Shown one piece after another: positions 19,792 to 52,633 of a stretch of DNA of 64,000 nt. How positions within the stretch are numbered: the first letter of the stretch is position 1; each line of letters opens with the position of its first letter. This DNA comes from an uncultured delta proteobacterium (GTDB taxonomy: Bacteria > Desulfobacterota > BSN033 > UBA1163). Below the pieces are notes generated by a model. It was not told where the DNA came from and made no database searches. It worked only from the letters and a program-made list of their open reading frames with translations. Where the stretch lies: positions 1 through 64,000 of the forward strand of contig CAWHBU010000004.1 in NCBI GenBank assembly GCA_963827685.1, read 5' to 3'. Position numbers and translations under genes: made by a program.

Positions 19792-19841
19792 CGAACCTCT
19801 CTCATGATACAAATTACTGACACTTGTATATATTTGCAGGT

Positions 19842-37246: not shown

Positions 37247-37275
37247 TTGACAAAAAAGTGCCAATTTCGTAGTTT
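37247..37275 (+). promoter_or_regulatory. Putative nuo operon promoter
   Basis: TTGACA-17 bp-TAGTTT about 40 bp before nuoA. Confidence 0.55.
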
Positions 37276-37316
37276 GTTGCGGGACAAAAAATATTTTGTA
37301 AAAAACGGGGACGATC

Positions 37317-37673
37317 ATGTTGATTGAATATCTTGCCATTCTCATCTATATTGCCATCGCTGTTGTTTTTGCCCTCTTCGCCATCGTCGCTTCCGCTCTC
37401 TTAGGCCAGAGAAAACCCACCGCTCTCAAGCAGGCACCCTATGAGTGCGGGATGACGACCGTTGGCTCAAGCTTCCGCAGGATACCCATCAAGTACTACA
37501 TCATCGCCATGCTTTTTCTCCTCTTTGATATTGAGGTGGTTTTCCTCTATCCCTGGGCAGTGGTCTTCAAAGAGTTTAAGGTCTTTGCCTTCATCTCAAT
37601 GGCGGTCTTCATTGGAATTTTACTCATCGCCTATATCTACATCTGGAAAAAAGGAGCATTGGAATGGGAATAG
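37317..37673 (+). CDS. nuoA: Complex I subunit A
   Basis: [38 protein letters not shown]. Confidence 0.97.
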
Positions 37674-38170
37674 AAACTTACCTTGAAAAAACGGCTTTTA
37701 TGCCTGCTTTGGATTGGCTCGTCAACTGGGGTCGAAAGTATTCGATCTGGCCGGTGACCTTTGGCTTAGCCTGCTGCGCACTGGAGATGATTGTCACCAG
37801 TTCAGCGACGTGGGATATCTCTCGGTTTGGTTCAGAGGTTTTCAGGCCTTCCCCCCGGCAGGCAGATTTGATGATCGTTGCAGGGACCTTGACCAAAAAG
37901 ATGGCTCCTATGGTTAAACGCATCTATGAACAAATGCCAGAGCCCAAATGGGTCATTGCTTATGGAGCCTGTGCCTGCTCAGGCGGAATCTTCAAAACCT
38001 ACAGTGTGGTGCAGGGAGTGGATCAAATACTACCTGTGGACTTCTATGTCCCAGGTTGTCCACCCAGACCTGAAGCTTTGCTCACAGCGATTGTGAAGCT
38101 CCAGAAGAAGATCGAGAAAGAGACGCTTGCGAATCGAAAGAACGTTCGCAGCACCCTTGAACTGAAATAA
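37664..38170 (+). CDS. nuoB: Complex I subunit B
   Basis: [34 protein letters not shown]. Confidence 0.97.
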
Positions 38171-38186
38171 GGATAAGAGGAAAAGA

Positions 38187-38675
38187 ATGGCCGAAATCAA
38201 TCTCACGGTAAAGAAGTTGCAGGGGAAATTCCCGGCCTCCGTCTTGGAGGTAAAGACATTTCGGGATGAGGTCAACGTCACCGTTCAGAAGAAAGACATT
38301 TTTGAAATCTGTAAATTTCTTTATTCCGATCCAGATCTCCAATACCGGATGCTCACCGACCTCTGCGGCGTGGATTTCTTTCCAGAGTCCCCCCGTTTTG
38401 AAGTGGTTTATCTTCTCTATTCGATGAAGGAACAGCAAAGGCTGAGACTGAAAATAAAAGTTGGCGATTCTGAATCGGTTTTAAGTGTGGAGTCCATCTG
38501 GAAAGCAGCCGACTGGTTGGAAAGGGAGGTCTATGACCTCTTTGGGATTTCCTTTGACAACCATCCCGATTTGAGGAGAATTCTCCTCTGGGATGGTTAC
38601 GAGGGTCATCCCTTGAGAAAGGATTTTCCGGTCGAGGGACCGGATTTTGACAAACCCTTCGTTCCCGAGGTTTGA
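38187..38675 (+). CDS. nuoC: Complex I subunit C
   Basis: WLEREVYDLFGI.F..HPDLRRILL...GHPLRKDFP. Confidence 0.97.
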   Translation: MAEINLTVKKLQGKFPASVLEVKTFRDEVNVTVQKKDIFEICKFLYSDPDLQYRMLTDLCGVDFFPESPRFEVVYLLYSMKEQQRLRLKIKVGDSESVLSVESIWKAADWLEREVYDLFGISFDNHPDLRRILLWDGYEGHPLRKDFPVEGPDFDKPFVPEV

Positions 38676-38676
38676 A

Positions 38677-39849
38677 ATGGCAGAGACACGGTTAATGACC
38701 ATCAACATGGGACCTCAGCACCCGGCCACTCACGGGGTTTTGAGGCTTGTGTTGGAATTGGATGGAGAGGTGATCGTTAAGGTCGTCCCCCATATCGGCC
38801 ACCTGCACCGGGGGGTTGAGAAACTGGCTGAAAGTAAAACGTATCACCAAGTCATTCCCCTCACCGACCGTTTGGATTATACGAATGCGATGGGTAATAA
38901 CCTGGGCTATGTGTTAGCCGTGGAAAAACTATTGGGCATTGAAATCCCCAGACGGGCTCAATATCTTAGAGTGATGATGGCTGAGCTTCAGAGGATTGCT
39001 GCCCATCTTATCTGGTTGGGAACGCATGCCTTGGACATCGGCGCCATGACCCTCCTCTTCTACAACTTTCGGGAAAGGGAAGAGATCCTGAGAATCTTTG
39101 AGGAAGTGGCAGGAGGGAGGCTCACCCCTACCTACATGAGAATTGGCGGAGTTTCAAAAGACCTTCCAGATGGCATAGAAGATAAGATCAAGGAATTCGT
39201 TCAGGCCTTTCCAGACCATATCAAAGAATATGAAACGCTTTTGACGAAGAATGTGATCTGGTTGAAGCGGACGAAAGGCGTTGGGATCATTTCGAAAGAG
39301 GATGCGATCAACTGGGGCATGACCGGGCCAAGCCTGCGTGGCTCCGGAGTCAAATACGATGTGAGGAAGGCCTTTCCCTATTCGAGTTATGATGAGTTCA
39401 ATTTCGATATCCCCATCGGCTCAACGGGGGATGTCTACGATCGGTACATCGTGCGGTTGAGGGAAATGGAATGGTCGAATGCCATTGTGAAACAGGCATT
39501 GGAACGGCTGCCCAAGGGACCTATTATCGCGAACGACCCAAGGATCACCCTTCCACCCAAAGACGATGTGACAAGAGACATCGCTTCATTAATCCGACAG
39601 TTCAAAATCGTCTCCGAAGGCTTCCAACCCCCGAGAGGCGAGGTCTATGTGAGCGTGGAGGCTTCTAAGGGAGAGTTGGGATACTATCTCGTCAGTGATG
39701 GATCGAATAAGCCCTTGCGGATGAGGATTCGACCGCCCTCTTTCTTCAATCTCAGTGCCCTTCCCAAAATGGTTGAGGGAAGTTTGATCGCTGATGTGAT
39801 TTCGGCAATTGGCAGCATTGACATCGTCCTGGGGGAAATCGATCGATAA
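38677..39849 (+). CDS. nuoD: Complex I subunit D
   Basis: INMGPQHPATHGVLRL, LHRGVEK, DRLDY, IDIVLGEIDR; no Ni-binding CxxC motifs. Confidence 0.97.
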   Translation: MAETRLMTINMGPQHPATHGVLRLVLELDGEVIVKVVPHIGHLHRGVEKLAESKTYHQVIPLTDRLDYTNAMGNNLGYVLAVEKLLGIEIPRRAQYLRVMMAELQRIAAHLIWLGTHALDIGAMTLLFYNFREREEILRIFEEVAGGRLTPTYMRIGGVSKDLPDGIEDKIKEFVQAFPDHIKEYETLLTKNVIWLKRTKGVGIISKEDAINWGMTGPSLRGSGVKYDVRKAFPYSSYDEFNFDIPIGSTGDVYDRYIVRLREMEWSNAIVKQALERLPKGPIIANDPRITLPPKDDVTRDIASLIRQFKIVSEGFQPPRGEVYVSVEASKGELGYYLVSDGSNKPLRMRIRPPSFFNLSALPKMVEGSLIADVISAIGSIDIVLGEIDR

Positions 39850-39852
39850 AAG

Positions 39853-40013
39853 AAAATGTCAAATGTCAAAGCTCGCACGAAGTGATGAACCGAAGGTGAA
39901 TCAAGTTCAAATCACTGTCAAATACCAAAGTTCAAATTTCAAGAATTGAGTTTTGGCATTTGGAATTTAGATTTCATTTGTCATTTGGATTTTGACATTT
40001 AGCATTTGACATT
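39853..40013. repeat. Heptamer-repeat palindrome (AATGTCA / TGACATT type)
   Basis: aaatgtcaaatgtcaaag...tttgacatttagcatttgacatt between nuoD and the sfrB-like gene. Confidence 0.75.
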
Positions 40014-40024
40014 GTGAGGTACAC

Positions 40025-41977
40025 ATGACGGACATTCTTTTTAGCAGTTGGGGGGGAGTGGTCACCGATAATCGAAGGAAACCTGAAGCAGAGAGGCAAC
40101 CCGTCTCCGCTCTCAATCTCCCCCTGGAATTTGATAAAGAGAGAAAGGTCAGAGCCTTTATTGGATGGGACGGGATTGTCATCAGAGACACTGAAGTCAA
40201 TATGGTCGATTTGATTCGGGCTTATGTGGAAGCGGTCCAGAGTGAATCCTGCGGAAAGTGTACACCCTGCCGGGTAGGGACTCGGATCATGGCGACCATC
40301 ATGAATCGAATTGCCGATGGTCAGGGCAAAGGTGAGGACTTAAAACAATTAAGATATTTAGGGGAGATGATTCAGAAGAGTTCCAAATGCAACCTCGGAC
40401 AGACCGGTCCGAAGCCTGTGTTGGATGCGATCGATCATTTTGAAGATCAATTCTCCGGTGCCATCCGGTTGCAAAAAAAAGTTCCTCGCCAGGAATACAA
40501 AGTCAAGGTGACAGCACCCTGTGAAAGCGCCTGTCCCTCCCATCTTCCCATCAGCCGTTATGTTGAATTGATCAAAGAGGGGAGATTCGAAGAATCCCTT
40601 GCCGCCATCCGAGGGGCGACCTGCCTGGCCGGAATCTTAGGAAGGATCTGCGTCCGTCCCTGCGAAGACAACTGTCGTCGGGGAAATGTGGATGAATGTA
40701 TTTCCATTAAATGGCTGAAACGGTTTGTCGCCGATTATGAACTGGAGAAGAGGAAGGATCCTTCGGTTAAGAAAGGGGAAATGCGTTCAGAGAAAGTGGC
40801 CGTCATTGGCGCAGGCCCAGCTGGTCTCTCGTGCGCTTACTACCTTGCCCTCAAAGGTTATCCTGTCACCATTTTCGAGAGGTTAGGTGAGCCAGGCGGG
40901 ATGGCAGCCATGGGGATCCCTGACTATCGTCTCCCGAGAGATATCGTTGGATACGAAGCAGAGATTGTAAAGAGGTTGGGGGTCGAGATTCGGTATAACA
41001 CGCAGGTGGGAAAGGATATCACCCTCTCTCAGATGTTTGAGCAGGGTTATAAGGCCATCTTTGTCGGTGTGGGCGCGCAGACCAATACGCCCATGGGTGT
41101 TGAGGGAGAAGATAAGGGATATAAGGGATTCATCCCGGGCGTTTATTACCTCTTGGAGATCAATCTGGGAAGAGACCCCTATCCTGAAGGCAAGAGGGTG
41201 GTGGTGGTCGGTGGTGGAAACGTGGCCATTGACTGTGTTCGGTCTTCTTTCCGCATTGGCAAAGCGGATGTGAACCTGGTTTATCGAAGGACGAAAAAAG
41301 AGATGCCTGCCGATCATGTGGAAATCCATGATGCAGAGGAAGAGGGCGTTAAATTTCATTACCTCTGCAATCCGGTCCGGATCATTGAGAAAGAGGGAAA
41401 GGTTGTTGGAATGGAGTGTATTCGGATGGAGCTGGGTGAACCGGATGAAAGCGGGAGGCGCAGACCCGTTCCCATCAAGGGTTCAGAATTTTTCATCGAA
41501 GCTGATATTGCTATCCCTGCCATTGGACAAGCGATCGATCTGTCCTTCCTCGAAGAAAAGGACGGGGTGAAGACGACGAGACGATCCACGATCGCCATCC
41601 AAGAAGGAACCTTTATGACAAGCCATCCGGGGATCTTCTCCGCCGGGGATTGTGTGACCGGACCCGATGTTTTGGTTCGTGCTGCAGGCCATGGAAAGAG
41701 AGCCGCTGACAAGATTGACCTGTTCCTTCGCGGAATGGAGGTAAGGGAATCTGAGGAAGAACTTCTGGAGACCCTGGTGGAGAAGATCAAGGTTTATAAC
41801 AAGAATGAAAAGATTGGAATCTCCGGCGGGCAGAAGAGGGCGACGTTGAACATGCTTCCTCCTGATTCGAGAAAATGGATCTTCGATGAGGTGGAGGAAG
41901 GATTTTCCATCCCGGTGGCTCAAAAGGAAGCAGAACGTTGTCTCAGGTGTGTGCGAATCGGACTGTTTGCAATTTAA
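40025..41977 (+). CDS. sfrB: SfrB-like NADPH oxidoreductase beta subunit (NuoF-type [4Fe-4S] domain + GltD/NfnB-like FAD module)
   Basis: N-terminus LFSSWG..V.DNR recalls Geobacter SfrB; [48 protein letters not shown]; no NuoF FMN domain. Confidence 0.75.
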   Translation: MTDILFSSWGGVVTDNRRKPEAERQPVSALNLPLEFDKERKVRAFIGWDGIVIRDTEVNMVDLIRAYVEAVQSESCGKCTPCRVGTRIMATIMNRIADGQGKGEDLKQLRYLGEMIQKSSKCNLGQTGPKPVLDAIDHFEDQFSGAIRLQKKVPRQEYKVKVTAPCESACPSHLPISRYVELIKEGRFEESLAAIRGATCLAGILGRICVRPCEDNCRRGNVDECISIKWLKRFVADYELEKRKDPSVKKGEMRSEKVAVIGAGPAGLSCAYYLALKGYPVTIFERLGEPGGMAAMGIPDYRLPRDIVGYEAEIVKRLGVEIRYNTQVGKDITLSQMFEQGYKAIFVGVGAQTNTPMGVEGEDKGYKGFIPGVYYLLEINLGRDPYPEGKRVVVVGGGNVAIDCVRSSFRIGKADVNLVYRRTKKEMPADHVEIHDAEEEGVKFHYLCNPVRIIEKEGKVVGMECIRMELGEPDESGRRRPVPIKGSEFFIEADIAIPAIGQAIDLSFLEEKDGVKTTRRSTIAIQEGTFMTSHPGIFSAGDCVTGPDVLVRAAGHGKRAADKIDLFLRGMEVRESEEELLETLVEKIKVYNKNEKIGISGGQKRATLNMLPPDSRKWIFDEVEEGFSIPVAQKEAERCLRCVRIGLFAI

Positions 41978-41983
41978 CGTGTT

Positions 41984-42056
41984 GGTGAATCGTGAATGGT
42001 GGATCGTGATGAGATTCTAAATCACGAATCACGAGTCACGAATCTCGATCCACGAG
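41984..42056. repeat. Heptamer-repeat palindrome (GTGAATC / TCACGAA type)
   Basis: gtgaatcgtgaatggtggatcgtga...tcacgaatcacgagtcacgaatctcgatccacga. Confidence 0.7.
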
Positions 42057-42067
42057 GTTTGATAAGA

Positions 42068-44695
42068 ATGTTAAAGCTGACCATTGATGGAAAAGAAGTT
42101 ACGGGAAGACCGGATCAAACGATCTTCGAGGTGGCCAAGGAAAACGGGATCTATATTCCCACTCTCTGCTATCACCCCAGATTAAGCCTGCTCAAATCCT
42201 GCCGTATCTGTTTGGTCGATGTCGAGGGTGCGGAGATGCCTATGGCGTCTTGTGCGACGCCTGTGGTCGAGGGGATGGTGATTCGTACCCGCACGGAGCG
42301 CGTCGAAAAGATGAGACTTGAGGCTTTAAAATTATTACTGGTCAACCATCCTCTGGACTGTCCTGTCTGTGATGCCGGAGGAGAATGCCAACTCCAGAAC
42401 CGCACCTATGAATTTGGGATCGAGAAGAACGAGTTTCCTCCAGAGAAAAGAGAAACTCCGTCCACTCCCTATGGAACCCCCCTGATCATGCAGTGGTTTG
42501 ACCGATGTGTGATGTGTCTCCGCTGTATCCAGGCCTGTGTGGATGTGCCAGGGGCGGATGTCCTCGAGGTGGCAGAGCATGGTTTCCCATCTCATGTGAA
42601 GGCGGTTCGGAAGGAGAACTGTATCTCATGCGGCGAATGTCTCCAGATGTGTCCCGTGGGTGCTTTAACAGAGAATCTCAGCCCCATCAAAGGAAGAACA
42701 TGGCAACTTGACAGAATACGGACCACCTGCACTTTCTGTGGATGCGGTTGTCAACTCGAGCTCAACACCCTCGCCGATAGGAAAGTGGTCAAGGTGACCA
42801 CAAAAGGGGAAGCCGGGGTCAACCAGGGGAGCCTCTGTGTGAAAGGAAGATTCGGTTTTGATTTTATTCATCATCCTGACAGGCTTCAAAAACCTCTTGT
42901 AAAAAAATCCGGGGTGTTTGTGGAGGTCTCCTGGGAAGAAGCTCTGGGTCTGGTTGCCACAAAACTTCAGGAAATAAAAGAGAAGTATGGTGCCCAGAGC
43001 ATCGGGGGAATCTCTTCCTCCAGGGGAACGAATGAAGAAAACTATCTCTTCCAGAAATGGATGAGAGCCTGCATCGGGACAAACCATATCGACAATGGTG
43101 CCCGATTGTCCAGTGGGTCTTCTCTCTTTGGAATGATGGCCTCCACCGGATATGGAGCGATGACTCATGCGATGGACGAAGTAACCAAGGCTGACCTCAT
43201 CCTTATCGTCGGTGCGGATTCGTATGATGATAATCTCATCTTCAGTAATAAGATGAGGGAGGCCATCCGAAAGAACAACGCTAAGATCATCCTGGTCGAT
43301 CCTCGGAAGACCCAATGGGAAAAATGGGCTGACCTATGGTTGAGGCCGCTGCCGGGGACGGATATTGCCTGGATCAATGGTCTAATTCGTCTCCTCATCG
43401 AGAAGGGTGCTCCCTCCAAAGAGTTTATCGGATCCAAGACAGAGGGTTTTGAAAGCCTGCGGTCCTCTGTAGAGAAATTTTCCGCCCAGTTTGTCAAGAA
43501 TACTACAGGGATCTCTCAAGCAGATTTAGAGGGAGTCGCCCATCTCTATGTGTCGGCGAAAAAGAGGGCGATCGTCTTTGGCTCTGGTGTGACCCAGCAT
43601 GCCAATGGAACGGAGATAGTCAAAGCTCTCTGCAACCTGGCCCTGCTGACTGGAGAGACAGAAGACGGAGGAGGAGGGGTCTACCCGCTGCTCACTCAGA
43701 ATAATGTCCAGGGCGCTTTCGATATGGGTTCACTCTCCGAATTCCTTCCCGGTTATCAGAAGGTGGGAGACGAAAAGGCGCGCAGAAAGTTTGAGGAAAT
43801 CTGGAAGAGAAGGATTCCAGAAAAACCGGGCCTCACCTATATGGAGATGTTCGATAAGATTCTGGAAGGAAAGATCAAAGCCCTCTATATCTTCGGTGAA
43901 GACCCCTTCATCAACCTCCCCAACTTAGAGAGACTGAAGAACGGACTCCATCAGTTGGAGTTTTTGGTGGTGCAAGATCTTTTCATGACCCACATCGGGA
44001 GTTATGCCCATGTCATTTTGCCCGGGGTGAGTTTTGCTGAGAAGGATGGGACCTTCACCAACATGGAGAGAAGGATTCAAAGGGTGCGGAAGGCCATCTC
44101 ACCGGTCGGCGATTCCAGACCCGACTGGAAGATCCTCTGTGATCTTTCTACGAAAATGGGTTATCCAATGGGATGCCAGAACCCTGCTGAGATCATGGAG
44201 GAGATCGTCTCTCTGGTGCCCTTCTATGCCGGAGTTACATATTCTGATTTAGAGAAGGGCGGAATCCGGTGGTCCTCAAAGAATGGATGGAAGCGGAGCT
44301 TCTCCCCGATAGAATACAAAGGGCCAGCAGAAAAGCCTGATAACAAATATCCTTTATGGATCATCCCCAGAGGTTTCCATTACCATTACGGAATCGGAAC
44401 GGCGAACAAGAGAGCCATAGGATTAGCCAAGGTTTTTCCTGATTCCTGTATCGAAGTTCACCCGGAGGATGCCACGAGGGCAGGATTGCAAGAAGGGGGA
44501 AAGGTGAAGGTCGTCTCACCCAGGGGTGAGGTGGAGACGATCTGCAAGATTTCCGGAGCCGTTCCCAAAGGGGTGGCCTATTTTGCCACCACATTCTTCC
44601 CTGTTTTTGTAAATAATCTTTTAATCTCCGGATATGATGCGATAAGTCAACACCCTGAATACAAGGTCTTTATCGGAAGGGTGGAGAAACGATAG
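42068..44695 (+). CDS. sfrA: SfrA/NuoG-like Fe-S protein with a molybdopterin-oxidoreductase fold lacking the catalytic Cys/Sec
   Basis: IPTLC..CRIC..C, HPLDCPVCDAGGECQLQ, two CxxCxxCxxxC, TCTFCGCGC..C; FDH site reads NHIDNGARLSS instead of DHCARL(C/U)H. Confidence 0.75.
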   Translation: MLKLTIDGKEVTGRPDQTIFEVAKENGIYIPTLCYHPRLSLLKSCRICLVDVEGAEMPMASCATPVVEGMVIRTRTERVEKMRLEALKLLLVNHPLDCPVCDAGGECQLQNRTYEFGIEKNEFPPEKRETPSTPYGTPLIMQWFDRCVMCLRCIQACVDVPGADVLEVAEHGFPSHVKAVRKENCISCGECLQMCPVGALTENLSPIKGRTWQLDRIRTTCTFCGCGCQLELNTLADRKVVKVTTKGEAGVNQGSLCVKGRFGFDFIHHPDRLQKPLVKKSGVFVEVSWEEALGLVATKLQEIKEKYGAQSIGGISSSRGTNEENYLFQKWMRACIGTNHIDNGARLSSGSSLFGMMASTGYGAMTHAMDEVTKADLILIVGADSYDDNLIFSNKMREAIRKNNAKIILVDPRKTQWEKWADLWLRPLPGTDIAWINGLIRLLIEKGAPSKEFIGSKTEGFESLRSSVEKFSAQFVKNTTGISQADLEGVAHLYVSAKKRAIVFGSGVTQHANGTEIVKALCNLALLTGETEDGGGGVYPLLTQNNVQGAFDMGSLSEFLPGYQKVGDEKARRKFEEIWKRRIPEKPGLTYMEMFDKILEGKIKALYIFGEDPFINLPNLERLKNGLHQLEFLVVQDLFMTHIGSYAHVILPGVSFAEKDGTFTNMERRIQRVRKAISPVGDSRPDWKILCDLSTKMGYPMGCQNPAEIMEEIVSLVPFYAGVTYSDLEKGGIRWSSKNGWKRSFSPIEYKGPAEKPDNKYPLWIIPRGFHYHYGIGTANKRAIGLAKVFPDSCIEVHPEDATRAGLQEGGKVKVVSPRGEVETICKISGAVPKGVAYFATTFFPVFVNNLLISGYDAISQHPEYKVFIGRVEKR

Positions 44696-44829
44696 AGGAG
44701 AGCTCTGAAGATACGATAGAGCCTCTCTTGATTACACACCTGCCTGCCGCAGGCAGGGATTTCAAAAAATGATTCAACAGATCTTCAGAGATTTCTGGTT
44801 TTTTAGAAACGTCGTGGAGGAGAAGCAGG

Positions 44830-45849
44830 ATGCAACTGTTCTATCTTCTCGTTGAGATGGTTGTCAAATGCGTGGTGGTTTTTGCCGGTCTGATGATCGT
44901 CGTGGCCTATTTGACTTGGCTGGAACGGAAGGTTTTGGGTCATATCCAGATTCGTTTTGGCCCCAATCGTTGCGGGCCCTTTGGATTGCTTCAACCCTTT
45001 TCGGATGCCGTCAAAGCCTTCTTCAAAGAGGACCTGGTTCCCGCAAGGGCGGATAAGGTCGTCTTCGTCATGGCCCCGATGATATCGATCATCGCCGCTA
45101 TCAGCATCTTTGCTGTCATCCCCTTTGGCAATCAGTTTACCATTCCTGGAACGAATTGGGTGGTCAAACTGCGAATAGCCGACATTGACGTAGGGCTTCT
45201 CTATATCTTCGGCATAGCCTCTCTTGGAGAATTTGGAATTATCTTAGGAGGCTGGTCTTCCGGGAATAAGTATGGTCTAACCGGTTCCCTTCGAGCCGCG
45301 GCTCAGATGATCAGTTATGAAACGGCTCTCGGCATCGCGATCGTCGGAGTCCTCATTCTCTCACAAAGTCTGAGGCTGACCGAGATCGTTCAACTTCAGG
45401 GAGGAGGGTTCTGGAATTGGAATATCTGGTATCAGCCGGTGGCCTTTGTTCTTTATCTGATTTGCGGCCTAGCTGAGATCAACCGGACTCCTTTTGATAT
45501 GCCCGAGGCAGAAGCCGAGCTGGCCTGTGGGTTCAACATCGAATACAGCAGCATGAAATTTGCCCTTTTCTTCATGGCCGAATATGCGCATATGGTTACG
45601 ATGGGCGCGGTCGCTGTGACGCTCTTCATGGGAGGATGGCAGCCCATCATTCCTCAACTCAGTTTCATCCCCGGCATCGTCTGGTTCTGTGCGAAGCTCT
45701 TTATCTTTCTCTTCTTCTTCATCTGGGAGCGAGGAACGATGCCGCGGCTCCGATACGATCAGATCATGAAGTTTGGATGGAAGATCTTGATACCCTTAGC
45801 CCTGATCAATCTCTTAGTGACTGGATTGATCGTCTCGTTGAAAGGTTAA
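44830..45849 (+). CDS. nuoH: Complex I subunit H
   Basis: ERKVLGHIQ.R.GPN..GPFGLLQP..D..K, AQMISYE, NRTPFDMPEAEAEL, PRLRYDQ. Confidence 0.97.
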   Translation: MQLFYLLVEMVVKCVVVFAGLMIVVAYLTWLERKVLGHIQIRFGPNRCGPFGLLQPFSDAVKAFFKEDLVPARADKVVFVMAPMISIIAAISIFAVIPFGNQFTIPGTNWVVKLRIADIDVGLLYIFGIASLGEFGIILGGWSSGNKYGLTGSLRAAAQMISYETALGIAIVGVLILSQSLRLTEIVQLQGGGFWNWNIWYQPVAFVLYLICGLAEINRTPFDMPEAEAELACGFNIEYSSMKFALFFMAEYAHMVTMGAVAVTLFMGGWQPIIPQLSFIPGIVWFCAKLFIFLFFFIWERGTMPRLRYDQIMKFGWKILIPLALINLLVTGLIVSLKG

Positions 45850-45863
45850 TAAAGAGGTCGAAG

Positions 45864-46277
45864 ATGATACTCCCATTGTTAAAAGGTTTGGCACTTACTT
45901 TGAATCGGTTTTTCTCCAAACCCATCACCATCCAATATCCGGAACAGAAAATACCTCCGGCGAAACGTTGGAGGGGAATTCAATATTTTGAGAAGGATGA
46001 GCACGGGAAGACCAAGTGTGTCGCCTGCGGCCTCTGTATGATCGTCTGTCCTTCTCAATGCATCTACATCGAGACGGCTGAGGATGAAGAGGGGAAACGG
46101 TACCCACTCACCTACGAACTTGATGCCACTCGATGTATTTTTTGTGGTTATTGCGAAGAGGCGTGTCCCGTTAAGGCGATCTTTATGGGAAAGAACTATG
46201 AATGGGTGGAAGGGGATCGAAAAGTTTATCTTATGACCACCGAGAAACTATTAGAAGAGAAAAAGGTTAATCCGTAA
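45864..46277 (+). CDS. nuoI: Complex I subunit I
   Basis: ITIQYPE, CVACGLCMIVCP, CIFCGYCEEACP; SD AGAGG before ATG 45864. Confidence 0.95.
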   Translation: MILPLLKGLALTLNRFFSKPITIQYPEQKIPPAKRWRGIQYFEKDEHGKTKCVACGLCMIVCPSQCIYIETAEDEEGKRYPLTYELDATRCIFCGYCEEACPVKAIFMGKNYEWVEGDRKVYLMTTEKLLEEKKVNP

Positions 46278-46349
46278 TTTAATGAAGCGCATAGCGCATG
46301 GAGCATAGCGCAAAGCGTAAGAACTGTTAAATTCATTTGGAGCAAGACA

Positions 46350-46877
46350 ATGGCTGAAAATGTCGTAACGATATTTCAATGGTTGATCTTTTTAGGAGTG
46401 GCGTTTACCTCCATCATCGCCTCCTTATTGGTCATCAGTCGAAAAAACCCTATCCACAGCGCTCTTTTTCTGGTGCTAACCTTCCTCTGCGTGTCGGTGC
46501 TTTACTTGCTGCTTTACCAACAATTCATGTTCATCATCCAGATTTTCGTTTACGCCGGCGCCATCGTGATGCTGATCGTCTTTGTCATCATGCTTCTGGA
46601 TCTGGAGGTGGAGCTTCGATCCGGTTTGAAACTTTTTTATTCGAAGGTGATCGGTGGCCTGCTGATGGTTCTCTTTCTTTTCGGGATCATTTATTCGGTT
46701 GTGGCGAAATCTCCGACTGGAAAGATGGGTTCCTATACGCCGGATAAGGCGAGTGCCAATGTGAAGGCTGTCGGTGAGATGCTTTTCACTCAATATCTTT
46801 TTCCCTTCGAGATTGTTTCTGTCCTCCTCGCGGCAGCCGTCGTCGGAGCGGTCATCTTGAGCAAGAAAAGGAATTAA
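46350..46877 (+). CDS. nuoJ: Complex I subunit J
   Basis: NPIHSALFL, QIFVYAGAIVML, YLFPFEIVSVLL. Confidence 0.95.
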   Translation: MAENVVTIFQWLIFLGVAFTSIIASLLVISRKNPIHSALFLVLTFLCVSVLYLLLYQQFMFIIQIFVYAGAIVMLIVFVIMLLDLEVELRSGLKLFYSKVIGGLLMVLFLFGIIYSVVAKSPTGKMGSYTPDKASANVKAVGEMLFTQYLFPFEIVSVLLAAAVVGAVILSKKRN

Positions 46878-46887
46878 GGAGAGGATT

Positions 46888-47202
46888 ATGGTGATTCCAG
46901 CTGTTCCCCCTGAATTATATCTGGTCTTGAGCGGAATACTCTTCACAATCGGAGTGATCGGAGCCCTGACCCGGCGAAATGCGATTGTGGTCTTCATGTG
47001 TATTGAGATGATGCTCAATGCGGTGAACATTTCTTTCATTACCCTATCCCGCTTTCTCCAATCTCTGGACGGGGTACTCTTTGCCTTCTTTGTCATCGCT
47101 GTAGCAGCGGCTGAGGCAGCGGTTGGGCTGGCAATCTTTGTGATGATTTATCGCTCGAGAGAAACGATCAACGTGGATGAAATTAATATATTAAAATGGT
47201 AA
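46888..47202 (+). CDS. nuoK: Complex I subunit K
   Basis: RRNAI..MCIEMMLNAVN, VAAAEAAVGLAI. Confidence 0.96.
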   Translation: MVIPAVPPELYLVLSGILFTIGVIGALTRRNAIVVFMCIEMMLNAVNISFITLSRFLQSLDGVLFAFFVIAVAAAEAAVGLAIFVMIYRSRETINVDEINILKW

Positions 47203-47205
47203 AGC

Positions 47206-47277
47206 GAGTTAAGAATTATGAATTGAGAATTACGAATTTTTTAAACTCTAAACTCATAACTCCTAATTCTTAATTCT
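47206..47277. repeat. Heptamer-repeat palindrome (GAATTAn / TAATTCT type)
   Basis: gagttaagaattatgaattgagaattacgaatt...aactctaaactcataactcctaattcttaattct. Confidence 0.7.
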
Positions 47278-47292
47278 CCGGAGGAGATATTC

Positions 47293-49284
47293 ATGCTTAA
47301 TTATGTCTGGTTGATCCCCCTGTTTCCGGCGATCGGTTTTATGATCAATGGGTTCTTCGGCAGAAGTTTGGGGAAGAAGGCGGTCAGCTGGGTGGGACCC
47401 TCAGTGATTGGTCTTTCCTTTCTCACCTCTATCCTGATCTTCTTCGAATTGATCGGAAGGCCACCGACGGAGCGTCTCTTTGAAAAAGTGATTTTTGATT
47501 GGGTGGTCTCGGGCTCATTCCAAACGGTGGTCGGCTACCAGATCGATCCTCTCTCCATCCTGATGGCTCTGGTGGTCAGTGGGGTTAGCTTCTTCATCCA
47601 TATCTACTCAGTGGGATACATGCATGATGATCCGGGATATACTCGGTATTTCACCTACCTCAACCTCTTCGTCTTCATGATGCTCAATCTCATCCTGGCG
47701 AACAACTTTTTATTGATGTTTGTGGGATGGGAGGGTGTCGGCCTCTGTTCCTATCTCTTGATCGGTTTCTGGTATGAAAAGGATTCCGCCTCCAATGCAG
47801 GGAAAAAGGCTTTTGTGGTCAACCGAGTGGGTGACTTCGGTTTCATTCTCGGAATATTCCTTCTCTTCACCAGTCTCGGAAAACATGGGGTCTGGACATT
47901 GGATTTTACTGAGGTCTTCGCCAATGCTCATTTGCTGGAACCTGGAACCGTAACAGCCATCACGATTCTGCTCTTTGTGGGTGCCTGTGGAAAATCGGCG
48001 CAAATTCCGATATATGTTTGGCTTCCTGACGCCATGGAAGGTCCTACACCGGTCAGCTCCCTCATCCATGCGGCCACGATGGTGACCGCAGGGGTTTATA
48101 TGGTCGCGCGGTGCAATATACTCTACAGCATGGCACCCATTTCCATGGCCATCGTGGCCATCGTCGGCGTGGCCACTGCCATCTTTACCGCCTCTATTGG
48201 ATTCTGCCAGAACGATATCAAAAAAGTTCTGGCCTACTCTACAATCAGCCAGTTGGGATATATGTTCCTGGGTGTGGGAGTAGGTGCATACAGTGCTGGG
48301 ATCTTCCACCTAATGACCCATGCCTTCTTCAAGGGGCTTCTCTTTCTCGGCGCCGGAAGTGTGATGCATGCTCTGAGTGGCGAATTGGATATGAGAAAGA
48401 TGGGAGCTCTCAGAAAAAAGATTCCCTATACCTTCTGGACCTTCTTCATCGCCACGCTTGCCATCGCCGGGATTCCCGGCTTGAGTGGATTTTTCAGTAA
48501 GGACGAAATTCTCTGGCAAGCCTTCTCCAGCTCCCATGGCCATTTCATCTTATGGGGGGTGGCTGCTATCGCTGCTGGAATGACGGCCTTCTATATGTTC
48601 AGGGCTCTGTTCATGACTTTCTTTGGTCAGTCCAGGGTCGATGAGCATGTAGCACATCATGTCCATGAATCACCCAAAATCATGACCGTTCCTTTAATGG
48701 TTCTTGCTGTTCTCTCCATCATTGGAGGTTATATAGGTGTTCCTCACGTTTTGGGAGGAGCCAACCACATCCATGAGTTCCTCGCTCCTGTATTGGGAGG
48801 TGGGGCTGAGCCGGCCAAAGCCCATGCCGGGATCACACTCATCTCACAGGCTTGGGCATCTGGAGGAGAGGGGGCAGGACATTTGGCTACATGGGAGTTC
48901 CCGATGATGGTAATCTCTGTGGTTATCGCCCTCATAGGGATCGGGATCGCTTATCTCTTCTATGTGAAGAATCCAGCTCTTCCCAAACTCGTGGCGGAAA
49001 AATGGAAGGGACTCTACAAGCTGGTCTTCAATAAATATTATGTCGACGAACTCTACGAAATCCTTTTCATCAACTCTCTTAAAAACTTGGGCACGGCGCT
49101 CTGGAAAGGATTTGATGACTTTGTCATCGATGCTACGATCAATGGCATTGCTTATTTCATCGGTCTGATCTCGGGAACGATAAGAAAGATGCAGACCGGT
49201 TTGGTTCAAAACTATGCCTTTTCAATGGTCATCGGGGGAATCGTCCTCGTAGCCTATTACATCGCGCGCGCTATTTTTTATTAA
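47293..49284 (+). CDS. nuoL: Complex I subunit L
   Basis: GWEGVGLCSYLLIGFW, GKSAQ.P..WLPDAMEGPTPVS, HLMTHAFFK. Confidence 0.97.
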   Translation: MLNYVWLIPLFPAIGFMINGFFGRSLGKKAVSWVGPSVIGLSFLTSILIFFELIGRPPTERLFEKVIFDWVVSGSFQTVVGYQIDPLSILMALVVSGVSFFIHIYSVGYMHDDPGYTRYFTYLNLFVFMMLNLILANNFLLMFVGWEGVGLCSYLLIGFWYEKDSASNAGKKAFVVNRVGDFGFILGIFLLFTSLGKHGVWTLDFTEVFANAHLLEPGTVTAITILLFVGACGKSAQIPIYVWLPDAMEGPTPVSSLIHAATMVTAGVYMVARCNILYSMAPISMAIVAIVGVATAIFTASIGFCQNDIKKVLAYSTISQLGYMFLGVGVGAYSAGIFHLMTHAFFKGLLFLGAGSVMHALSGELDMRKMGALRKKIPYTFWTFFIATLAIAGIPGLSGFFSKDEILWQAFSSSHGHFILWGVAAIAAGMTAFYMFRALFMTFFGQSRVDEHVAHHVHESPKIMTVPLMVLAVLSIIGGYIGVPHVLGGANHIHEFLAPVLGGGAEPAKAHAGITLISQAWASGGEGAGHLATWEFPMMVISVVIALIGIGIAYLFYVKNPALPKLVAEKWKGLYKLVFNKYYVDELYEILFINSLKNLGTALWKGFDDFVIDATINGIAYFIGLISGTIRKMQTGLVQNYAFSMVIGGIVLVAYYIARAIFY

Positions 49285-49382
49285 AATCCCCCTCAATCCC
49301 CCTTTTGCCTGTCTTTGACAGGAAAAAGATTACAAAGGGGGAGGTTACTCCTCCCTTTCGTAAAGGGAGGCAGGGAGGGATT
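49285..49382. repeat. REP-like CCCCCTTT/AAAGGGGG palindromes
   Basis: aatcccccttttg...caaagggggagg and ctccctttcgtaaagggag hairpins between nuoL and nuoM. Confidence 0.65.
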
Positions 49383-49403
49383 TAAAAAAAAGGAGTCGAT
49401 TTC

Positions 49404-50954
49404 ATGACTATCCTGGGTATTCCCATCCTATCGCTGTTGATCTTCTTTCCGATCTTGGGTGCCATCGTTCTCCTCTTCATCAACAAAGAGAATGGGAGAG
49501 CTCTGAGGTGGGTCACTTTAATCTTCTCTTTCATCGAATTTATTTTCTCACTGCCCCTTTTCTTCGCCTTCGATCCCAAGACAGCAGCGATGCAATTCGT
49601 GGAGAATTCGTGGTGGATTCAGAGCTATGGGATCAGCTACAAATTGGGCATCGATGGAATCAGTCTCCTTCTGGTCCTCTTGACTACCTTTTTGACCATC
49701 CTCTGTATCCTATGCTCATGGACAGCGATCACCTTCCGGGTAAAGGAATTCATGATCTCGTTCCTCTTTCTTGAGACAGGGATGATCGGTGCCTTGGCGG
49801 CCCTCGATCTCATCCTTTTCTATGTCTTCTGGGAAGTCATGCTGATCCCGATGTATCTGCTCATTGGTGTTTGGGGTGATCCCAAGAGAAGGATTTATGC
49901 AGCAGTCAAGTTCTTCCTTTTTACCATGGCCGGAAGTGTGCTCATGCTCGTGGCGATCCTGGCCCTCTATTTCCTGAATCAGAAGACAACCGGTGTCTCC
50001 ACCTTTGACGTGATCGAACTCTATAAATTGGGATTGCCCGTCGGGGCGCAGTACTGGCTTTTTGGAGCTTTTGCCCTGGCCTTTGCCATCAAGGTTCCGA
50101 TGTTCCCCTTTCATACCTGGTTGCCCGATGCTCATACCGAGGCGCCGACTGCTGGAAGTGTGATCCTGGCAGGCGTCCTGCTGAAGATGGGAACCTATGG
50201 GTTCATCCGATTTGCCATACCCCTGTTTCCGAAGGCCGCCTTCGATCTTTTACCGTTAGTTTCGATCTTGGCCCTTATTGGAATTATTTACGGTGCGTTG
50301 GTTTCAATGATGCAGCCCGATCTGAAGCGACTGGTCGCTTTCTCGAGCGTGAGCCACCTGGGATATGTCATGCTCGGAATGTTTGCTTTCAACATGCAAG
50401 GGGTCGAGGGCTCGATCTATCAGATGCTCAACCATGGCATCAGCACGGGGTCCCTCTTTTTGATTGTCGGGATGATCTATGAGCGCCGCCATACGCGTTT
50501 GATCGCTGACTTTGGAGGACTCTCGAAGGTGATGCCGATCTATGCTGTCTTCTTCATGATCGTGACCCTCTCATCGATCGGCCTGCCCGGGACGAATGGG
50601 TTTGTGGGAGAATTTCTGATCCTGCTCGGTGCTTTTCGATCCAACGTCGTCTACGGGGTGTTTGCTGCGACGGGCGTCATCTTGGGAGCCGCTTACATGC
50701 TGTGGATGTTTCAGAGAGTGATGTTTGGAAAGATCACCCGGCCTGAAAATGAAAAGCTGAAAGACCTCAATGCTCGAGAAATTACCATCCTCGTTCCGAT
50801 GGTGATTCTAATCTTTCTTATGGGCATCTATCCCAAGCTTTTCTTCAGCAAGATGGACGCCAGCGTGGAGCAGTTTATAAAGGATTTCAAGGGAAGGGTT
50901 GAAATGAAGGCCGACCTTCCCTCGCAAAAAGTGGCCGAAGTCGTGAAGAAATAG
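49404..50954 (+). CDS. nuoM: Complex I subunit M
   Basis: [51 protein letters not shown]. Confidence 0.97.
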
Positions 50955-51049
50955 ATGGGAAGACACGGAGAAACAAGAGATAATTAGAGTTTCACCGTGT
51001 CACCGAGTCACGTATTCCCCGTGTCAAGGTATAGCGGAGGATTCTTTAG

Positions 51050-52501
51050 ATGAAAATACCAGAGATTGACCTCTATCTCATTGCACCGGAGATTATCATC
51101 ACTGCCTTTGGGTTTTTGGTGCTTCTGTTGGACGTCTTTTTACCCAAAGGAGAGAGAAAGGGGTACCTTGGAGTCATCAGCCTCATCGGGATATTTTTTG
51201 CCGGTCTTTATACTTTGCCGCAGATGGGATCTGTTAGATCCGGGTTTGAAGGGATGTTCATCTCGGATGGGTATGCTCTTTTTTTCAAAATCACTTTTCT
51301 GATCATCGCCTTTTTGACCGTCCTGATCTCTATTGGTTACATTCATAGGGAAATGATCGAGTTTGGGGAATATTATGCCCTGATCCTTTTTGCGACCCTC
51401 GGGATGATGCTGATGGCAGCGGGGTCTCATTTGATCATCATCTTCCTCGGTCTGGAAACGATGTCCATTTCCATCTATATCCTGGCCGGAATGATGCGAG
51501 AGGATAAAAGGTCAGTGGAAGCCGCATTGAAATATTTTCTTCTGGGTGCTTTTGCCACAGGATTCCTCCTCTATGGCATTGCCCTCATCTATGGTGCCAC
51601 AGGATCCCTTTATCTGAAGGACATCGCTTCTTATATTACCTCCAAAAATCTCTTGAGAAGCCCGATGCTTCTGATGAGCCTTGTTTTTCTCACCATTGGT
51701 TTCGGCTTCAAGATTGCTTCTGTCCCTTTTCATATGTGGACGCCCGATGTCTATGAAGGCGCTCCGACTTCCATTACTGCTTTCATGGCCACAGGTGTGA
51801 AGGCTGCCGGTTTTTCGGCCTTGATCAGAGTCTTCTTCTCCGCCTTGCCGGCATTTCGCCCTGATTGGACATCGATCATGTGGCTGATTTGCGTGGCCAC
51901 GATGACGGTCGGAAACATCGTAGCGATCTCCCAGGCCAATATTAAACGGATGTTAGCTTACTCGAGTATTGCGCATGCCGGGTACATTTTGGTTGCCTTT
52001 GTCGCGGGGAACGATTTAGGGACTTCAGGCATGCTTTTCTATCTCATGGCCTATGCCTTTATGAACATCGGTGCCTTTACCGTGGTCATCCTTCTCGGGA
52101 AGAAGGGAGAAGAGAACACCCTGATTAAGGATTATGCAGGGATTGGATTCAAATACCCGCTCCTGGCCGCTTCCATGACCATCTTTCTCCTCTCCATGGC
52201 AGGCATTCCTCCTCTGGGAGGATTCATGGCCAAATTCTATATTTTTAGTGCAGCGGTGAAGTCGAAATTTTATTGGTTGGCCATCCTCGGTGTCCTGAAC
52301 AGTGCGGTTTCGGTTTACTATTATCTGCGGGTCACTGTGCTCATGTATTTCAGGGAATCCGAGCGAGAGATCACCGGCCTCGAATTTTCACCTGCTTCTG
52401 TGATCGCATTGATTTTGGCCGTGATCGGAACCCTCTACATGGGGATCTTCCCCGCCAATGTGCTTTCCTTAGCTCAACGCTCCATCGCAGGGTTAATGTA
52501 G
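51050..52501 (+). CDS. nuoN: Complex I subunit N
   Basis: EAALKYFLLG, FKIASVPFHMWTPDVYEGAPT, KRMLAYSSIAHAGY, AGIPPLGGF.AK. Confidence 0.97.
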   Translation: MKIPEIDLYLIAPEIIITAFGFLVLLLDVFLPKGERKGYLGVISLIGIFFAGLYTLPQMGSVRSGFEGMFISDGYALFFKITFLIIAFLTVLISIGYIHREMIEFGEYYALILFATLGMMLMAAGSHLIIIFLGLETMSISIYILAGMMREDKRSVEAALKYFLLGAFATGFLLYGIALIYGATGSLYLKDIASYITSKNLLRSPMLLMSLVFLTIGFGFKIASVPFHMWTPDVYEGAPTSITAFMATGVKAAGFSALIRVFFSALPAFRPDWTSIMWLICVATMTVGNIVAISQANIKRMLAYSSIAHAGYILVAFVAGNDLGTSGMLFYLMAYAFMNIGAFTVVILLGKKGEENTLIKDYAGIGFKYPLLAASMTIFLLSMAGIPPLGGFMAKFYIFSAAVKSKFYWLAILGVLNSAVSVYYYLRVTVLMYFRESEREITGLEFSPASVIALILAVIGTLYMGIFPANVLSLAQRSIAGLM

Positions 52502-52633
52502 GAAATGGAAGAGTTTAAAGACACCCATTTTAATTCCTCAATTGACTCCATAAAATACATTCAACAAACTATAAGCAGAACCTAAAGCTATCTTTTCAAA
52601 ACCTAATCAACATTCTTGGCAGGAGAGAATATT

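Follow-up and report, generated by a model that had tools for sequence, protein, structure and literature searches.

A complex I operon with a two-gene insert at the nuoEFG position

The stretch of DNA analyzed here (the window) comprises 64,000 nucleotides (nt) of contig CAWHBU010000004.1 (positions 1 to 64,000, forward strand) in the assembly GCA_963827685.1 of an uncultured delta proteobacterium (Desulfobacterota; BSN033; UBA1163). At 37317–52501 it carries 13 consecutive plus-strand genes of a complex I (nuo) operon, in which the genes for a flavoprotein and a large iron-sulfur (Fe-S) protein are placed exactly between nuoD and nuoH, the usual site of nuoEFG. The order nuoA-B-C-D, 650-amino-acid (aa) flavoprotein, 875/899-aa Fe-S protein, nuoH-I-J-K-L-M-N on one strand had been proposed in a first-pass annotation of the bare sequence and was confirmed by open reading frames (ORFs), Pfam and NCBIfam; its proposal that the two inserted genes occupy the nuoEFG position was borne out as well, and together they hold parts of an electron-input module. 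All 13 genes matched their families at E values of 1e-27 to 1e-233, which for 13 genes in a row leaves no room for a chance pattern. The operon is made up as follows.

37317..37673, plus strand: nuoA, 118 aa (PF00507, E 1.6e-36)
37664..38170, plus strand: nuoB, 168 aa, carrier of cluster N2 (PF01058; NF005012, 242 bits against a cutoff of 116)
38187..38675, plus strand: nuoC, 162 aa (PF00329; TIGR01961, 152 bits against a cutoff of 122)
38647..39849, plus strand: nuoD, ORF from TTG 38647 (TIGR01962, 573 bits against a cutoff of 459)
39850..40024, plus strand: 175-nt spacer between nuoD and the flavoprotein gene (TGTCAAA/TTTGACA direct and inverted repeats)
40025..41977, plus strand: flavoprotein P0001, 650 aa, SfrB/FdhB-like (Pfam, PDB matches, motifs, family invariants, tree)
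42068..44695, plus strand: P0002, a formate dehydrogenase (FDH)-like NuoG, 875 aa from M25 (899 aa for the ORF from 41996; five Fe-S clusters, molybdopterin-type domain)
44830..45849, plus strand: nuoH, 339 aa (PF00146, E 2.5e-121)
45864..46277, plus strand: nuoI, 137 aa (TIGR01971, 138 bits against a cutoff of 113)
46350..46877, plus strand: nuoJ, 175 aa (PF00499)
46888..47202, plus strand: nuoK, 104 aa (PF00420; NF004320, 131 bits against a cutoff of 57)
47293..49284, plus strand: nuoL, 663 aa, full-length match (NF005141, 776 bits against a cutoff of 556, residues 2–658)
49404..50954, plus strand: nuoM, 516 aa (TIGR01972, 648 bits against a cutoff of 264)
51050..52501, plus strand: nuoN, 483 aa (TIGR01770, 475 bits)

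The 11 core subunits NuoA, B, C, D, H, I, J, K, L, M and N are present, each with a Pfam E value of 1e-30 or better, NuoI being assigned by 4Fe-4S ferredoxin families of Pfam together with TIGR01971 of NCBIfam. An NCBIfam cutoff was exceeded by NuoB, C, D, I, K, L, M and N. The translation of NuoB contains the N2 ligands (tandem CC, a further C and a CPP motif), and that of NuoI two CxxCxxCxxxCP motifs, the ligands of N6a and N6b. In none of the 13 operon proteins did Pfam find a NuoE domain (PF01257) or the flavin mononucleotide (FMN) domain PF01512. The only piece of NuoF in the operon is its C-terminal Fe-S region, PF10589, and TIGR01959 matches at positions 293–408 only.

The start of nuoD is likely ATG 38677, giving 390 aa, because the match to a second genome described below (L001) starts at residue 11 and the nuoD of that genome encodes 390 aa. 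For the large protein, M25 (42068) is the most likely start, since most of the 120 listed close homologs are 875 or 869 aa long and cover 97% of the ORF; the length of about 875 aa given in the first-pass annotation agrees with this start. Judged by homolog length, nuoI starts at 45864: nearly all of 120 listed homologs have 137 aa, and a longer ORF from 45636 would overlap nuoH.

The GC content is even across the operon (0.46–0.51). A terminator scan found no terminator-like sites in the three spacers around the flavoprotein and large-subunit genes and no enrichment of such sites over 36800–53200 (14, against 18.0 ± 4.1 in shuffles), and a promoter scan of the region showed no enrichment of promoter-like sites. 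The spacer at 41978–42067 is built of short direct and inverted repeats (TCGTGA/TCACGA), as is that at 39850–40024 (TGTCAAA/TTTGACA); both folded more stably than their shuffled versions (z −1.9 for 39875–40024 and −2.6 for 41978–42067). At the matching junctions of L001 the genes are 3 nt apart or overlap. The repeat-rich spacers could be regulatory sites, RNA-processing sites or insertion scars. Between the large-subunit gene and nuoH, a perfect 9-bp GC-rich hairpin (CCTGCCTGC / GCAGGCAGG, 1-nt loop) lies at 44739–44757; no T run follows it, and it was not called a terminator. An Rfam scan of the whole window for RNA genes gave 0 matches.

The flavoprotein joins an N3-type cluster domain to a GltD-like module

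The 650-aa flavoprotein P0001 consists of the NuoF Fe-S region PF10589 (residues 62–144), PF14691, the two-cluster domain known from dihydropyrimidine dehydrogenase and GltD (163–242), and PF07992, a flavin adenine dinucleotide (FAD)/NAD(P) fold of the pyridine-nucleotide-disulfide type (257–557); the FMN domain PF01512 was not found in it by Pfam. Three of the N3-type cysteines, C76, C79 and C82, lie within SCGKCTPC at 75–82, and C122 is the fourth. The nucleotide motifs are GAGPAG at 262–267 (the GxGxxG of FAD), GGGNVA at 396–401 and YRR at 420–422. This matches the earlier description of the protein as a NuoF N3 motif (ESCGKCTPC..C) joined to a GltD/NfnB-like FAD module with YRR, on which Pfam, motif positions and PDB matches agree. 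Across 29 family members of 36–64% identity, C166, C170, C209, C213, C217, C639, C642, Y420, R421 and R422 are invariant.

The best solved relatives of the FAD part were chains of Stn/Nfn transhydrogenases that bind NADP(H) (9n5u_A, 383 bits; 9bov_A, 378; 8oh5_C, 332), with NfnB/NfnI (4ylf_B, 5jca_L) as further structural relatives. For the N3 part, HydB-type subunits were nearest (104 bits), and Thermus Nqo1 reached 61 bits. The segment GGGNVA...YRR(T)..EMPA of P0001 aligns residue for residue with 9n5u_A (NfnA), 9bov_A, 5jca_L (NfnI), 8oh5_C and 5vj7_A. P0001 shows all the features expected of a GltD/NfnB/DPD-type NADPH flavoprotein, namely a Fer4_20 domain, the GxGxxG of FAD and a GxGxxA with YRR, and GxGxxA is described as an NADP(H)-type motif in PMC7483475. 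As the GxGxxA/YRR site is common to NADP(H)-linked structures, agrees with that description and keeps its YRR in 120 of 120 listed close homologs, NADPH use by P0001 is a reasonable inference from the motif. The best subfamily model in NCBIfam was NF009410, ‘NAD(P)-binding protein’, with 454 bits and thus under its cutoff of 516, and the names given to close homologs by the Joint Genome Institute (JGI) include ‘formate dehydrogenase (NADP+) beta subunit’.

The large subunit is a hybrid of NuoG-like and FDH-like parts

In Pfam, the large subunit P0002 contains the domains Fer2_4, NADH-G_4Fe-4S_3, Fer4_Nqo3, Molybdop_Fe4S4, Molybdopterin and Molydop_binding, that is, five Fe-S sites followed by a molybdopterin-type part. 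When residues 25–240 were compared with the PDB, the first 30 of 51 matches were 75-kDa/NuoG chains of complex I (171–143 bits), with FdsA at 125 and YjgC at 99 bits. For the C-terminal part, formate dehydrogenases came out on top (FdhF of 7qv7, 331 bits; YjgC and FdhH, 301–313 bits; about 40% identity). Because the N-terminal domain is nearest to genuine 75-kDa/NuoG chains, P0002 would be better called an FDH-like NuoG.

In alignments to chain 1aa6_A and to the selenocysteine (Sec) formate dehydrogenase encoded in the window, the molybdopterin-type part of P0002 is intact save at the catalytic positions. X140 (selenocysteine), His141 and Arg333 of 1aa6_A, the three catalytic residues of FdhH with numbering taken from the alignment, correspond to Ser372, Ser373 and Leu566 of P0002. 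The Sec-FDH of the window (8515–10554), which served as an internal control, shows 39% identity to P0002 across 639 residues; both the Sec-His pair and the Arg are retained in it. NuoG-type Fe-S motifs on an FDH-like scaffold that lacks the molybdenum (Mo) ligand, as the first-pass annotation had put it, is thus the right description: Ser372 stands at the Sec position, and all three catalytic positions are gone.

Constraint was read from an alignment of P0002 with 120 listed close homologs of 85–91% identity (121 sequences). All 20 Fe-S ligands are invariant in 121/121 sequences. At position 372, 109 of them have Ser, 11 have Ala and a single one has Cys; at position 373 there are 71 with Ser, 40 with Asn, 8 with Gly and 2 with Ala; and at position 566, 107 have Leu and 11 Phe, while Val, Ile and His occur once each and Arg never. 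Invariant columns make up 41–47% of the Fe-S domains and 16–21% of the molybdopterin-type domains. Judged by these residues, P0002 is not a formate dehydrogenase, its catalytic positions being lost, and it is kept as an electron wire, not as a catalyst. We also rejected a real formate- or Mo-dependent activity, as the catalytic positions are both lost and drifting.

The source names of close homologs of both proteins include ‘formate dehydrogenase beta subunit’, ‘formate dehydrogenase (NADP+) alpha subunit’ and ‘molybdopterin-dependent oxidoreductase’, and the cluster names in a protein atlas were, as expected, only FDH-alpha, FDH-beta and GltD-like ones. Since the catalytic positions are lost, the formate dehydrogenase names are probably misleading for homologs of this clade.

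The large subunit is predicted to dock on NuoI

Residues 25–885 of P0002 were modeled together with NuoI, each with a 34-row alignment. The interface score ipSAE of the complex was 0.62 (0.61, 0.62 and 0.63 in the individual runs), compared with 0.00 for the best of three controls; the predicted local distance difference test (pLDDT) of the partners was at least 82, and the runs agreed in 100% of contacts. The docking mark is reached by 116 of 157 solved complexes and by 2 of 215 mismatched pairs, which are rough figures here, since own alignments were used. Confident contacts join P0002 residues 122–124, 230–237 and 259–260 to NuoI residues 53–60, 69–74, 79, 82 and 102–103, so that the predicted interface sets the His118/Cys122/Cys125/Cys131 cluster region of P0002 against the cluster motifs of NuoI. 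The model supports binding of P0002 to NuoI and does not show it; a NuoI interface on the large subunit, for which the first-pass annotation had asked, is thus predicted.

The same operon occurs in a second, diverged genome

A genome collection was scanned with the 29-sequence alignment as query; at least 599 stretches matched, 596 of them relatives, and 80 loci were kept. The 13 window proteins were then searched against these 80 loci, an E value of 1e-10 or lower counting as a nuo-like match. Such matches occurred in three loci (L001, L021 and L036), and all eleven nuo genes in L001 only.

L001 is contig LVAA01000027.1 of the metagenome-assembled genome (MAG) Syntrophobacterales bacterium Delta_02. 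Its order is nuoA-B-C-D, a 651-aa flavoprotein, an 811-aa G-like protein and nuoH-N, with neighboring genes 3 nt apart or overlapping. The flavoprotein is 62% identical to P0001 and has the same three Pfam domains, and the core genes nuoB to nuoN are 49–75% identical to those of the window. The G-like protein (11937–14372) retains 20/20 Fe-S ligands, and its N-terminal domain shares 52% identity with that of P0002. Its molybdopterin-type domain is only 26% identical to that of P0002, with 64 gap positions and with Leu, Glu and Ala at the catalytic positions, and in NCBIfam the protein scored highest with NuoG (345 bits; Fdh-alpha, 184). By its residues, the L001 protein seems to be the same subunit in a far more decayed state, like an ordinary decayed NuoG, which argues that P0002 plays the role of NuoG. 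As L001 is an independent assembly, the same operon in it also excludes an assembly chimera. The first-pass annotation had allowed for an arrangement unique to this contig or chimeric, and the order nuoD, flavoprotein gene, G-like gene, nuoH in this diverged genome refutes both.

The other two loci were rejected as instances of the same arrangement. L021 (Bathyarchaeia) has NuoD- and NuoB-like genes of 32–37% identity 3–5 kb upstream of a GltD-only homolog that lacks N3, and in L036 a Stn-type cluster is followed, 9 kb downstream, by an antiporter-like gene. Each of the two inserted proteins of the window has 120 listed clusters at 85–94% identity, some of them on contigs of 100 kb to 1.2 Mb, and the sources name the close homologs as Syntrophaceae, Thermodesulfobacteriota and Desulfobacterota MAGs.

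P0001 belongs to a widespread family of N3+GltD proteins

Representatives at 50% identity that are related to P0001 numbered 26,628 at E ≤ 0.001 and 4,663 at E ≤ 1e-30. A tree of 38 rows was built from P0001, the L001 protein, 28 of 150 listed representatives (about 630–690 aa, near-full coverage), five NuoF-GltD fusions trimmed to start at the N3 domain and three Stn-type outgroup chains; the 122 representatives excluded were fusions, fragments or GltD-only proteins. P0001, L001 and P0123 form a clade with a support of 99 in the Shimodaira–Hasegawa-like approximate likelihood ratio test (SH-aLRT), and of 98 when P0124 is joined to it. This clade lies within a family of stand-alone N3+GltD proteins (97) and is separate from the NuoF-GltD fusions (96). 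The label ‘SfrB/SfrA-like pair’, given in the first-pass annotation, stands as an analogy: both proteins follow the domain logic of SfrAB. Within the stand-alone family, P0001 belongs to a separate clade.

Related modules were seen in other settings among the loci. NuoF(FMN)-N3-GltD fusions occur in L009 (1342–6106, beside MTHFR genes), L015 (8310–14306, adjoined by a HoxU-like small protein and a Glu_synthase-domain protein), L027 (beside a small HoxU-like protein) and L047 (508–5727, beside an [FeFe] hydrogenase); those of L009, L015 and L047 have 1050–1145 aa. In L014 (2499–6343) an N3+GltD protein continues into the ORF of an [FeFe] hydrogenase across what looks like a frame break, so that the two are either beside each other or fused. 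Stn/Nfn-type clusters were recognized by ORF pattern in L007, L017, L028, L029, L036, L053 and L073, the Pfam check covering L029 only. The N3+GltD unit looks like a portable, widely reused module for the NADPH side whose partners carry an N-terminal domain of the NuoG type, the partner here being part of complex I.

Other genes in the window

The remaining genes of interest in the window are these.

404..1660, plus strand: NiFe hydrogenase large subunit
1721..2284, plus strand: HycI-type maturation protease
after the protease, to 6927, plus strand: 1418-aa HdrA/Mvh-like protein (GltD-type module, second FAD domain, 4Fe-4S dicluster)
7693..8502, plus strand: small Fe-S protein, directly before the selenocysteine FDH gene
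8515..10554, plus strand: selenocysteine FDH catalytic subunit, 679 aa, open only with TGA 8920 (codon 136) as Sec
15260..16315: HEPN/RES protein
18263..19812, minus strand: AbiEii/AbiEi
25793..27694, minus strand: GAF histidine kinase, adjoining the next gene
27722..31366, minus strand: 1214-aa fusion of a NuoF-type FMN domain, N3 region, GltD-type FAD/NAD(P)H module and C-terminal receiver domain
31815..33719, plus strand: acetyl-CoA hydrolase/transferase fused to a GNAT acetyltransferase
34884..36860, minus strand: acetyl-CoA synthetase, directly upstream of nuoA and divergent from it
53080..53835: HATPase_c_3 protein
55152..56147: DarT
56158..57282: macro-domain partner
57508..60003: TOTE-type AEP primase-helicase

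The genes at 404–6927 are a possible flavin-based bifurcating hydrogenase cluster. The 1214-aa fusion protein grouped in the tree with the NuoF-GltD fusions, not with P0001, and looks like either a redox enzyme controlled by a phosphorelay or a regulator that senses nucleotides. The genes at 31815–36860 hint at a link of the operon to acetate metabolism. Two defense-type patches, at 15260–19812 and 53080–60003, flank the metabolic region of the window.

Proposed mechanism and alternative explanations

The two inserted genes probably encode a built-in, non-canonical NAD(P)H:menaquinone input module of complex I, likely linked to NADPH and possibly reversible. The first-pass annotation had taken the pair for the built-in input of a proton-pumping NADPH:quinone oxidoreductase, or of reverse electron transport to NADP+. 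A built-in module is favored by the nuoEFG position, the recurrence in L001, the predicted docking on NuoI and the NADP(H)-type signature; the use of NADPH rather than NADH, the direction and the pumping are putative. The enzyme would be a 13-subunit complex I whose NuoE/NuoF(FMN)/NuoG head is exchanged for a two-subunit head. P0001 would accept hydride from NAD(P)H, most likely NADPH, at the GltD/Nfn-type FAD, and its two [4Fe-4S] clusters and the N3 cluster would carry the electrons on to the large subunit, by way of a putative contact between the two proteins. P0002 would act as NuoG, leading the electrons through a 2Fe-2S, a His-ligated 4Fe-4S and further 4Fe-4S clusters to the two clusters of NuoI, from where they would reach N2 in NuoB and, at the NuoD/NuoH site, a quinone that is presumably menaquinone. 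NuoL, M, N, H, A, J and K would pump protons, and the FDH-like C-terminal part of P0002 would be a non-catalytic scaffold. With a reduced quinone pool and a membrane potential, NADPH could be made in reverse. The NADP+/NADPH couple lies at about −320 mV. For menaquinone, −74 mV is given in PMC9304861, and the span from about −320 to −74 mV is enough for pumping and small enough for reversal. The source names of the homologs, together with the NiFe hydrogenase, the giant HdrA-like protein and the Sec-FDH of the window, make an anaerobic host likely; it is possibly syntrophic, and either direction would make sense in it.

Several observations count against such a module. The arrangement was shared by only one of the 80 loci kept from at least 599 stretches. 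The NADPH preference is a motif match to NADP(H)-linked relatives, a comparison that includes no NADH-specific relative. Since NuoG-NuoI is a solved textbook pair, the docking pass may stem from that known structure, and it shows likeness to NuoG at the interface rather than binding. P0002 scored under the cutoff of the NuoG equivalog TIGR01973 (429 against 470 bits) and, by 0.35 bit, just under that of Fdh-alpha TIGR01591 (665.9 against 666.25). Ser can ligate Mo in other molybdoenzymes, which makes cofactor binding by P0002 possible. The window encodes a NuoF-type FMN protein 6 kb upstream of the operon (27722–31366, minus strand). Spacers of 175 and 134 nt flank the inserted pair and fold somewhat better than shuffles (z −1.9), and with promoter-like matches in the region, one of them at 39978–40005, separate transcription is possible.

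These spacers and the match at 39978–40005 would suit a different explanation, in which the pair is a soluble NADPH oxidoreductase of the SfrAB type whose genes only share a location or a transcript with those of a headless, 11-subunit complex I of the ferredoxin type. SfrAB is soluble according to PMC7483475, and 11-subunit Nuo without NuoEFG is presented as common in anaerobes, with ferredoxin usually given as the donor (PMC4911364, PMC9386147, PMC13040438). We nevertheless regard this explanation as unlikely. The pair holds the exact nuoEFG position both in the window and in L001, with only 62% identity between the two flavoproteins, and the L001 genes have abutting or overlapping ends; the nearest relatives of the N-terminal domain of P0002 are genuine G subunits of complex I; docking of the large subunit on NuoI is predicted at 0.62, against 0.00 in the controls; and the molybdopterin-type part of the L001 subunit has decayed as in NuoG, with all 20 Fe-S ligands kept. 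An arrangement that is an assembly chimera or unique to the contig, for which the single further locus among the 80 might speak, can practically be dismissed: the order recurs in L001, which was assembled independently and has a core nuo B to N of 49–75% identity, the composition is even across the operon, and both inserted proteins have 120 listed clusters at 85–94% identity, some on contigs of 100 kb to 1.2 Mb.

Other explanations accept a built-in module and differ in what it does. That it runs mainly backwards in a syntrophic or fermenting host, where the membrane potential would drive electrons from the menaquinol of acyl-CoA or succinate oxidation uphill to NADP+, is the less probable course, though one that deserves some weight. 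Complex I is reversible, the sources name close relatives as Syntrophaceae or Thermodesulfobacteriota MAGs, and the hydrogenase, selenocysteine FDH and HdrA-like gene of the window are of a kind typically seen in syntrophs and sulfate reducers. Synthesis of NADH by complex I is mentioned in PMC4453560. However, the direction is not readable from sequence, electron flow from NADPH to menaquinone is strongly downhill (from about −320 mV to the −74 mV of PMC9304861), and the acetyl-CoA synthetase near the operon fits acetate oxidation equally well. We also consider it improbable that the module uses NADH, or both nucleotides, and not NADPH specifically. The specificity is drawn from the motif alone, and NF009410, the best NCBIfam subfamily (454 bits, cutoff 516), is named only ‘NAD(P)-binding protein’; yet Nfn, Stn and GltD structures linked to NADP(H) have an identical GxGxxA and YRR site, which is also invariant in the family, the JGI homolog names include ‘formate dehydrogenase (NADP+) beta subunit’, and the beta subunit in Moorella's NADPH-dependent FDH is annotated sfrB2 (PMC13040438). 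It is very unlikely that P0002 still binds a Mo or tungsten (W) cofactor via Ser372 and catalyzes another redox reaction as part of a two-substrate enzyme. Its molybdopterin-type part is unusually well kept (665.9 against 666.25 for Fdh-alpha, and 39% identity to the FDH of the window) and Ser is the commonest residue at 372 (109/121), but this position is Ala in 11/121, position 373 is Ser, Asn, Gly or Ala, and the equivalent of Arg333 is Leu, Phe, Val, Ile or His. In addition, these three positions are occupied by Leu, Glu and Ala in the L001 subunit, whose domain shows 64 gap positions, and the molybdopterin-type part evolves faster than the Fe-S part.

Comparison with known systems

Within the library of papers covered, full-text literature searches found no description of an operon of the order nuoD-[N3+GltD]-[FDH-like G]-nuoH. 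Canonical complex I (NuoA-N) shares with the operon the 11 membrane and quinone (Q)-module subunits, the ligands of N2 and N6a/b, the five Fe-S sites of the G subunit and the N3-type domain. In contrast to it, the operon is without NuoE or an FMN domain, has a GltD/Nfn-type FAD module with an NADP(H) signature, and its G subunit keeps a near-intact FDH-like part. SfrAB of Geobacter sulfurreducens is described as a soluble NADPH enzyme with two subunits, one GltD-like and one NuoG/FDH-like (PMC7483475, PMC9888536, PMC13186404). Compared by the domain description in PMC7483475, both have a GltD-like NADPH/FAD subunit with Fe-S clusters and an FDH/NuoG-like Fe-S subunit. SfrAB is, however, soluble and encoded apart from nuo, whereas the pairs of the window and L001 are embedded between nuoD and nuoH, and we use the SfrAB label for the inserted pair as an analogy. 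In the NADP-dependent FDH of Moorella thermoacetica, the beta subunit is annotated sfrB2 and the alpha subunit sfrA2 and fdhF3 (PMC13040438). The likeness lies in a beta-like flavoprotein joined by an alpha-like large subunit, and JGI names the close homologs formate dehydrogenase alpha and beta; the difference is that the window subunit reads Ser, Ser and Leu at the positions of Sec, His141 and Arg333 of 1aa6_A, and by these residues would not be a formate dehydrogenase.

The nearest concept that we found is Nuo-Bfu (Schut et al., 2022, PMC9304861), described as a nuo cluster of Geobacter and other anaerobes in which BfuABC replaces NuoEFG and menaquinone reduction is predicted. Here too, the middle genes of a nuo operon would encode a non-canonical input module. 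Nuo-Bfu as described there keeps a NuoE-like BfuC and an FMN-bearing NuoF-like BfuB, for which confurcation of NADH and ferredoxin is proposed (PMC9304861), whereas the operon has neither. Membership of the operon in Nuo-Bfu was rejected, as it contains no PF01512 or PF01257, and a BfuB search keyed on FMN-domain signatures would miss it. The electron-bifurcating transhydrogenases StnABC/NfnABC (PDB 8oh5, 9bov, 9n5u) gave the best structural matches to the GltD-like part of P0001 (332–383 bits) and likewise join a GltD-like NADPH module to a NuoG/FDH-like part without catalytic Mo. Unlike the inserted pair, they have both parts fused in one chain, bring NuoF- and NuoE-like partners, and are soluble with no membrane arm.

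Other head swaps of complex I-type enzymes are FpoF on Fpo, the ferredoxin-binding subunits on cyanobacterial NDH-1 and the two proteins that replace NuoE/F in Campylobacter. A gltD-related flavoprotein is reported in mbx-like operons (Degli Esposti, 2015, PMC4758237), and nuoABCDHIJKLMN is listed simply as headless in many genome papers (such as PMC4911364 and PMC9386147). In FpoF, NDH-1, Campylobacter and the mbx-like operons, as here, the membrane and Q modules are kept and the input module is exchanged. The donor proteins differ, however, and in none of these systems does the EFG position hold both an N3+GltD flavoprotein and a G subunit of the FDH-like type.

Significance

Complex I is generally taken as an NADH enzyme, with F420H2, ferredoxin or flavodoxin as the donors in the known exceptions. 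Exchange of the input module is thus familiar in this enzyme family, and the head proposed here is of clear interest to bioenergetics and to genome annotation. For annotation, the homologs are named FDH alpha and beta and stand to be corrected, and module-based surveys would score such genomes as being without complex I. In the G subunit, the transition from FDH to NuoG could be followed as a natural series, and the old suggestion that SfrAB-type enzymes feed respiration becomes directly testable on one enzyme.

It is quite conceivable, though we put it at somewhat short of an even chance, that the operon represents a distinct and environmentally abundant class of complex I in Thermodesulfobacteriota, acting as a pumping NADPH:menaquinone oxidoreductase or as an NADP+ reductase driven by the membrane potential. 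Its G subunit would be a barely decayed FDH-alpha, further decayed to a NuoG-like state in L001, which would trace the path of NuoG from FDH and suggest that the N-module was invented more than once. If the NADPH-linked reading is true, an NADPH-wired complex I would couple the pool of anabolic nucleotide directly to the quinone pool and the membrane potential, with no transhydrogenase involved. It would thereby change models of redox balance and energy yield for the acetate-oxidizing, sulfate-reducing and syntrophic Thermodesulfobacteriota of sediments and anaerobic digesters.

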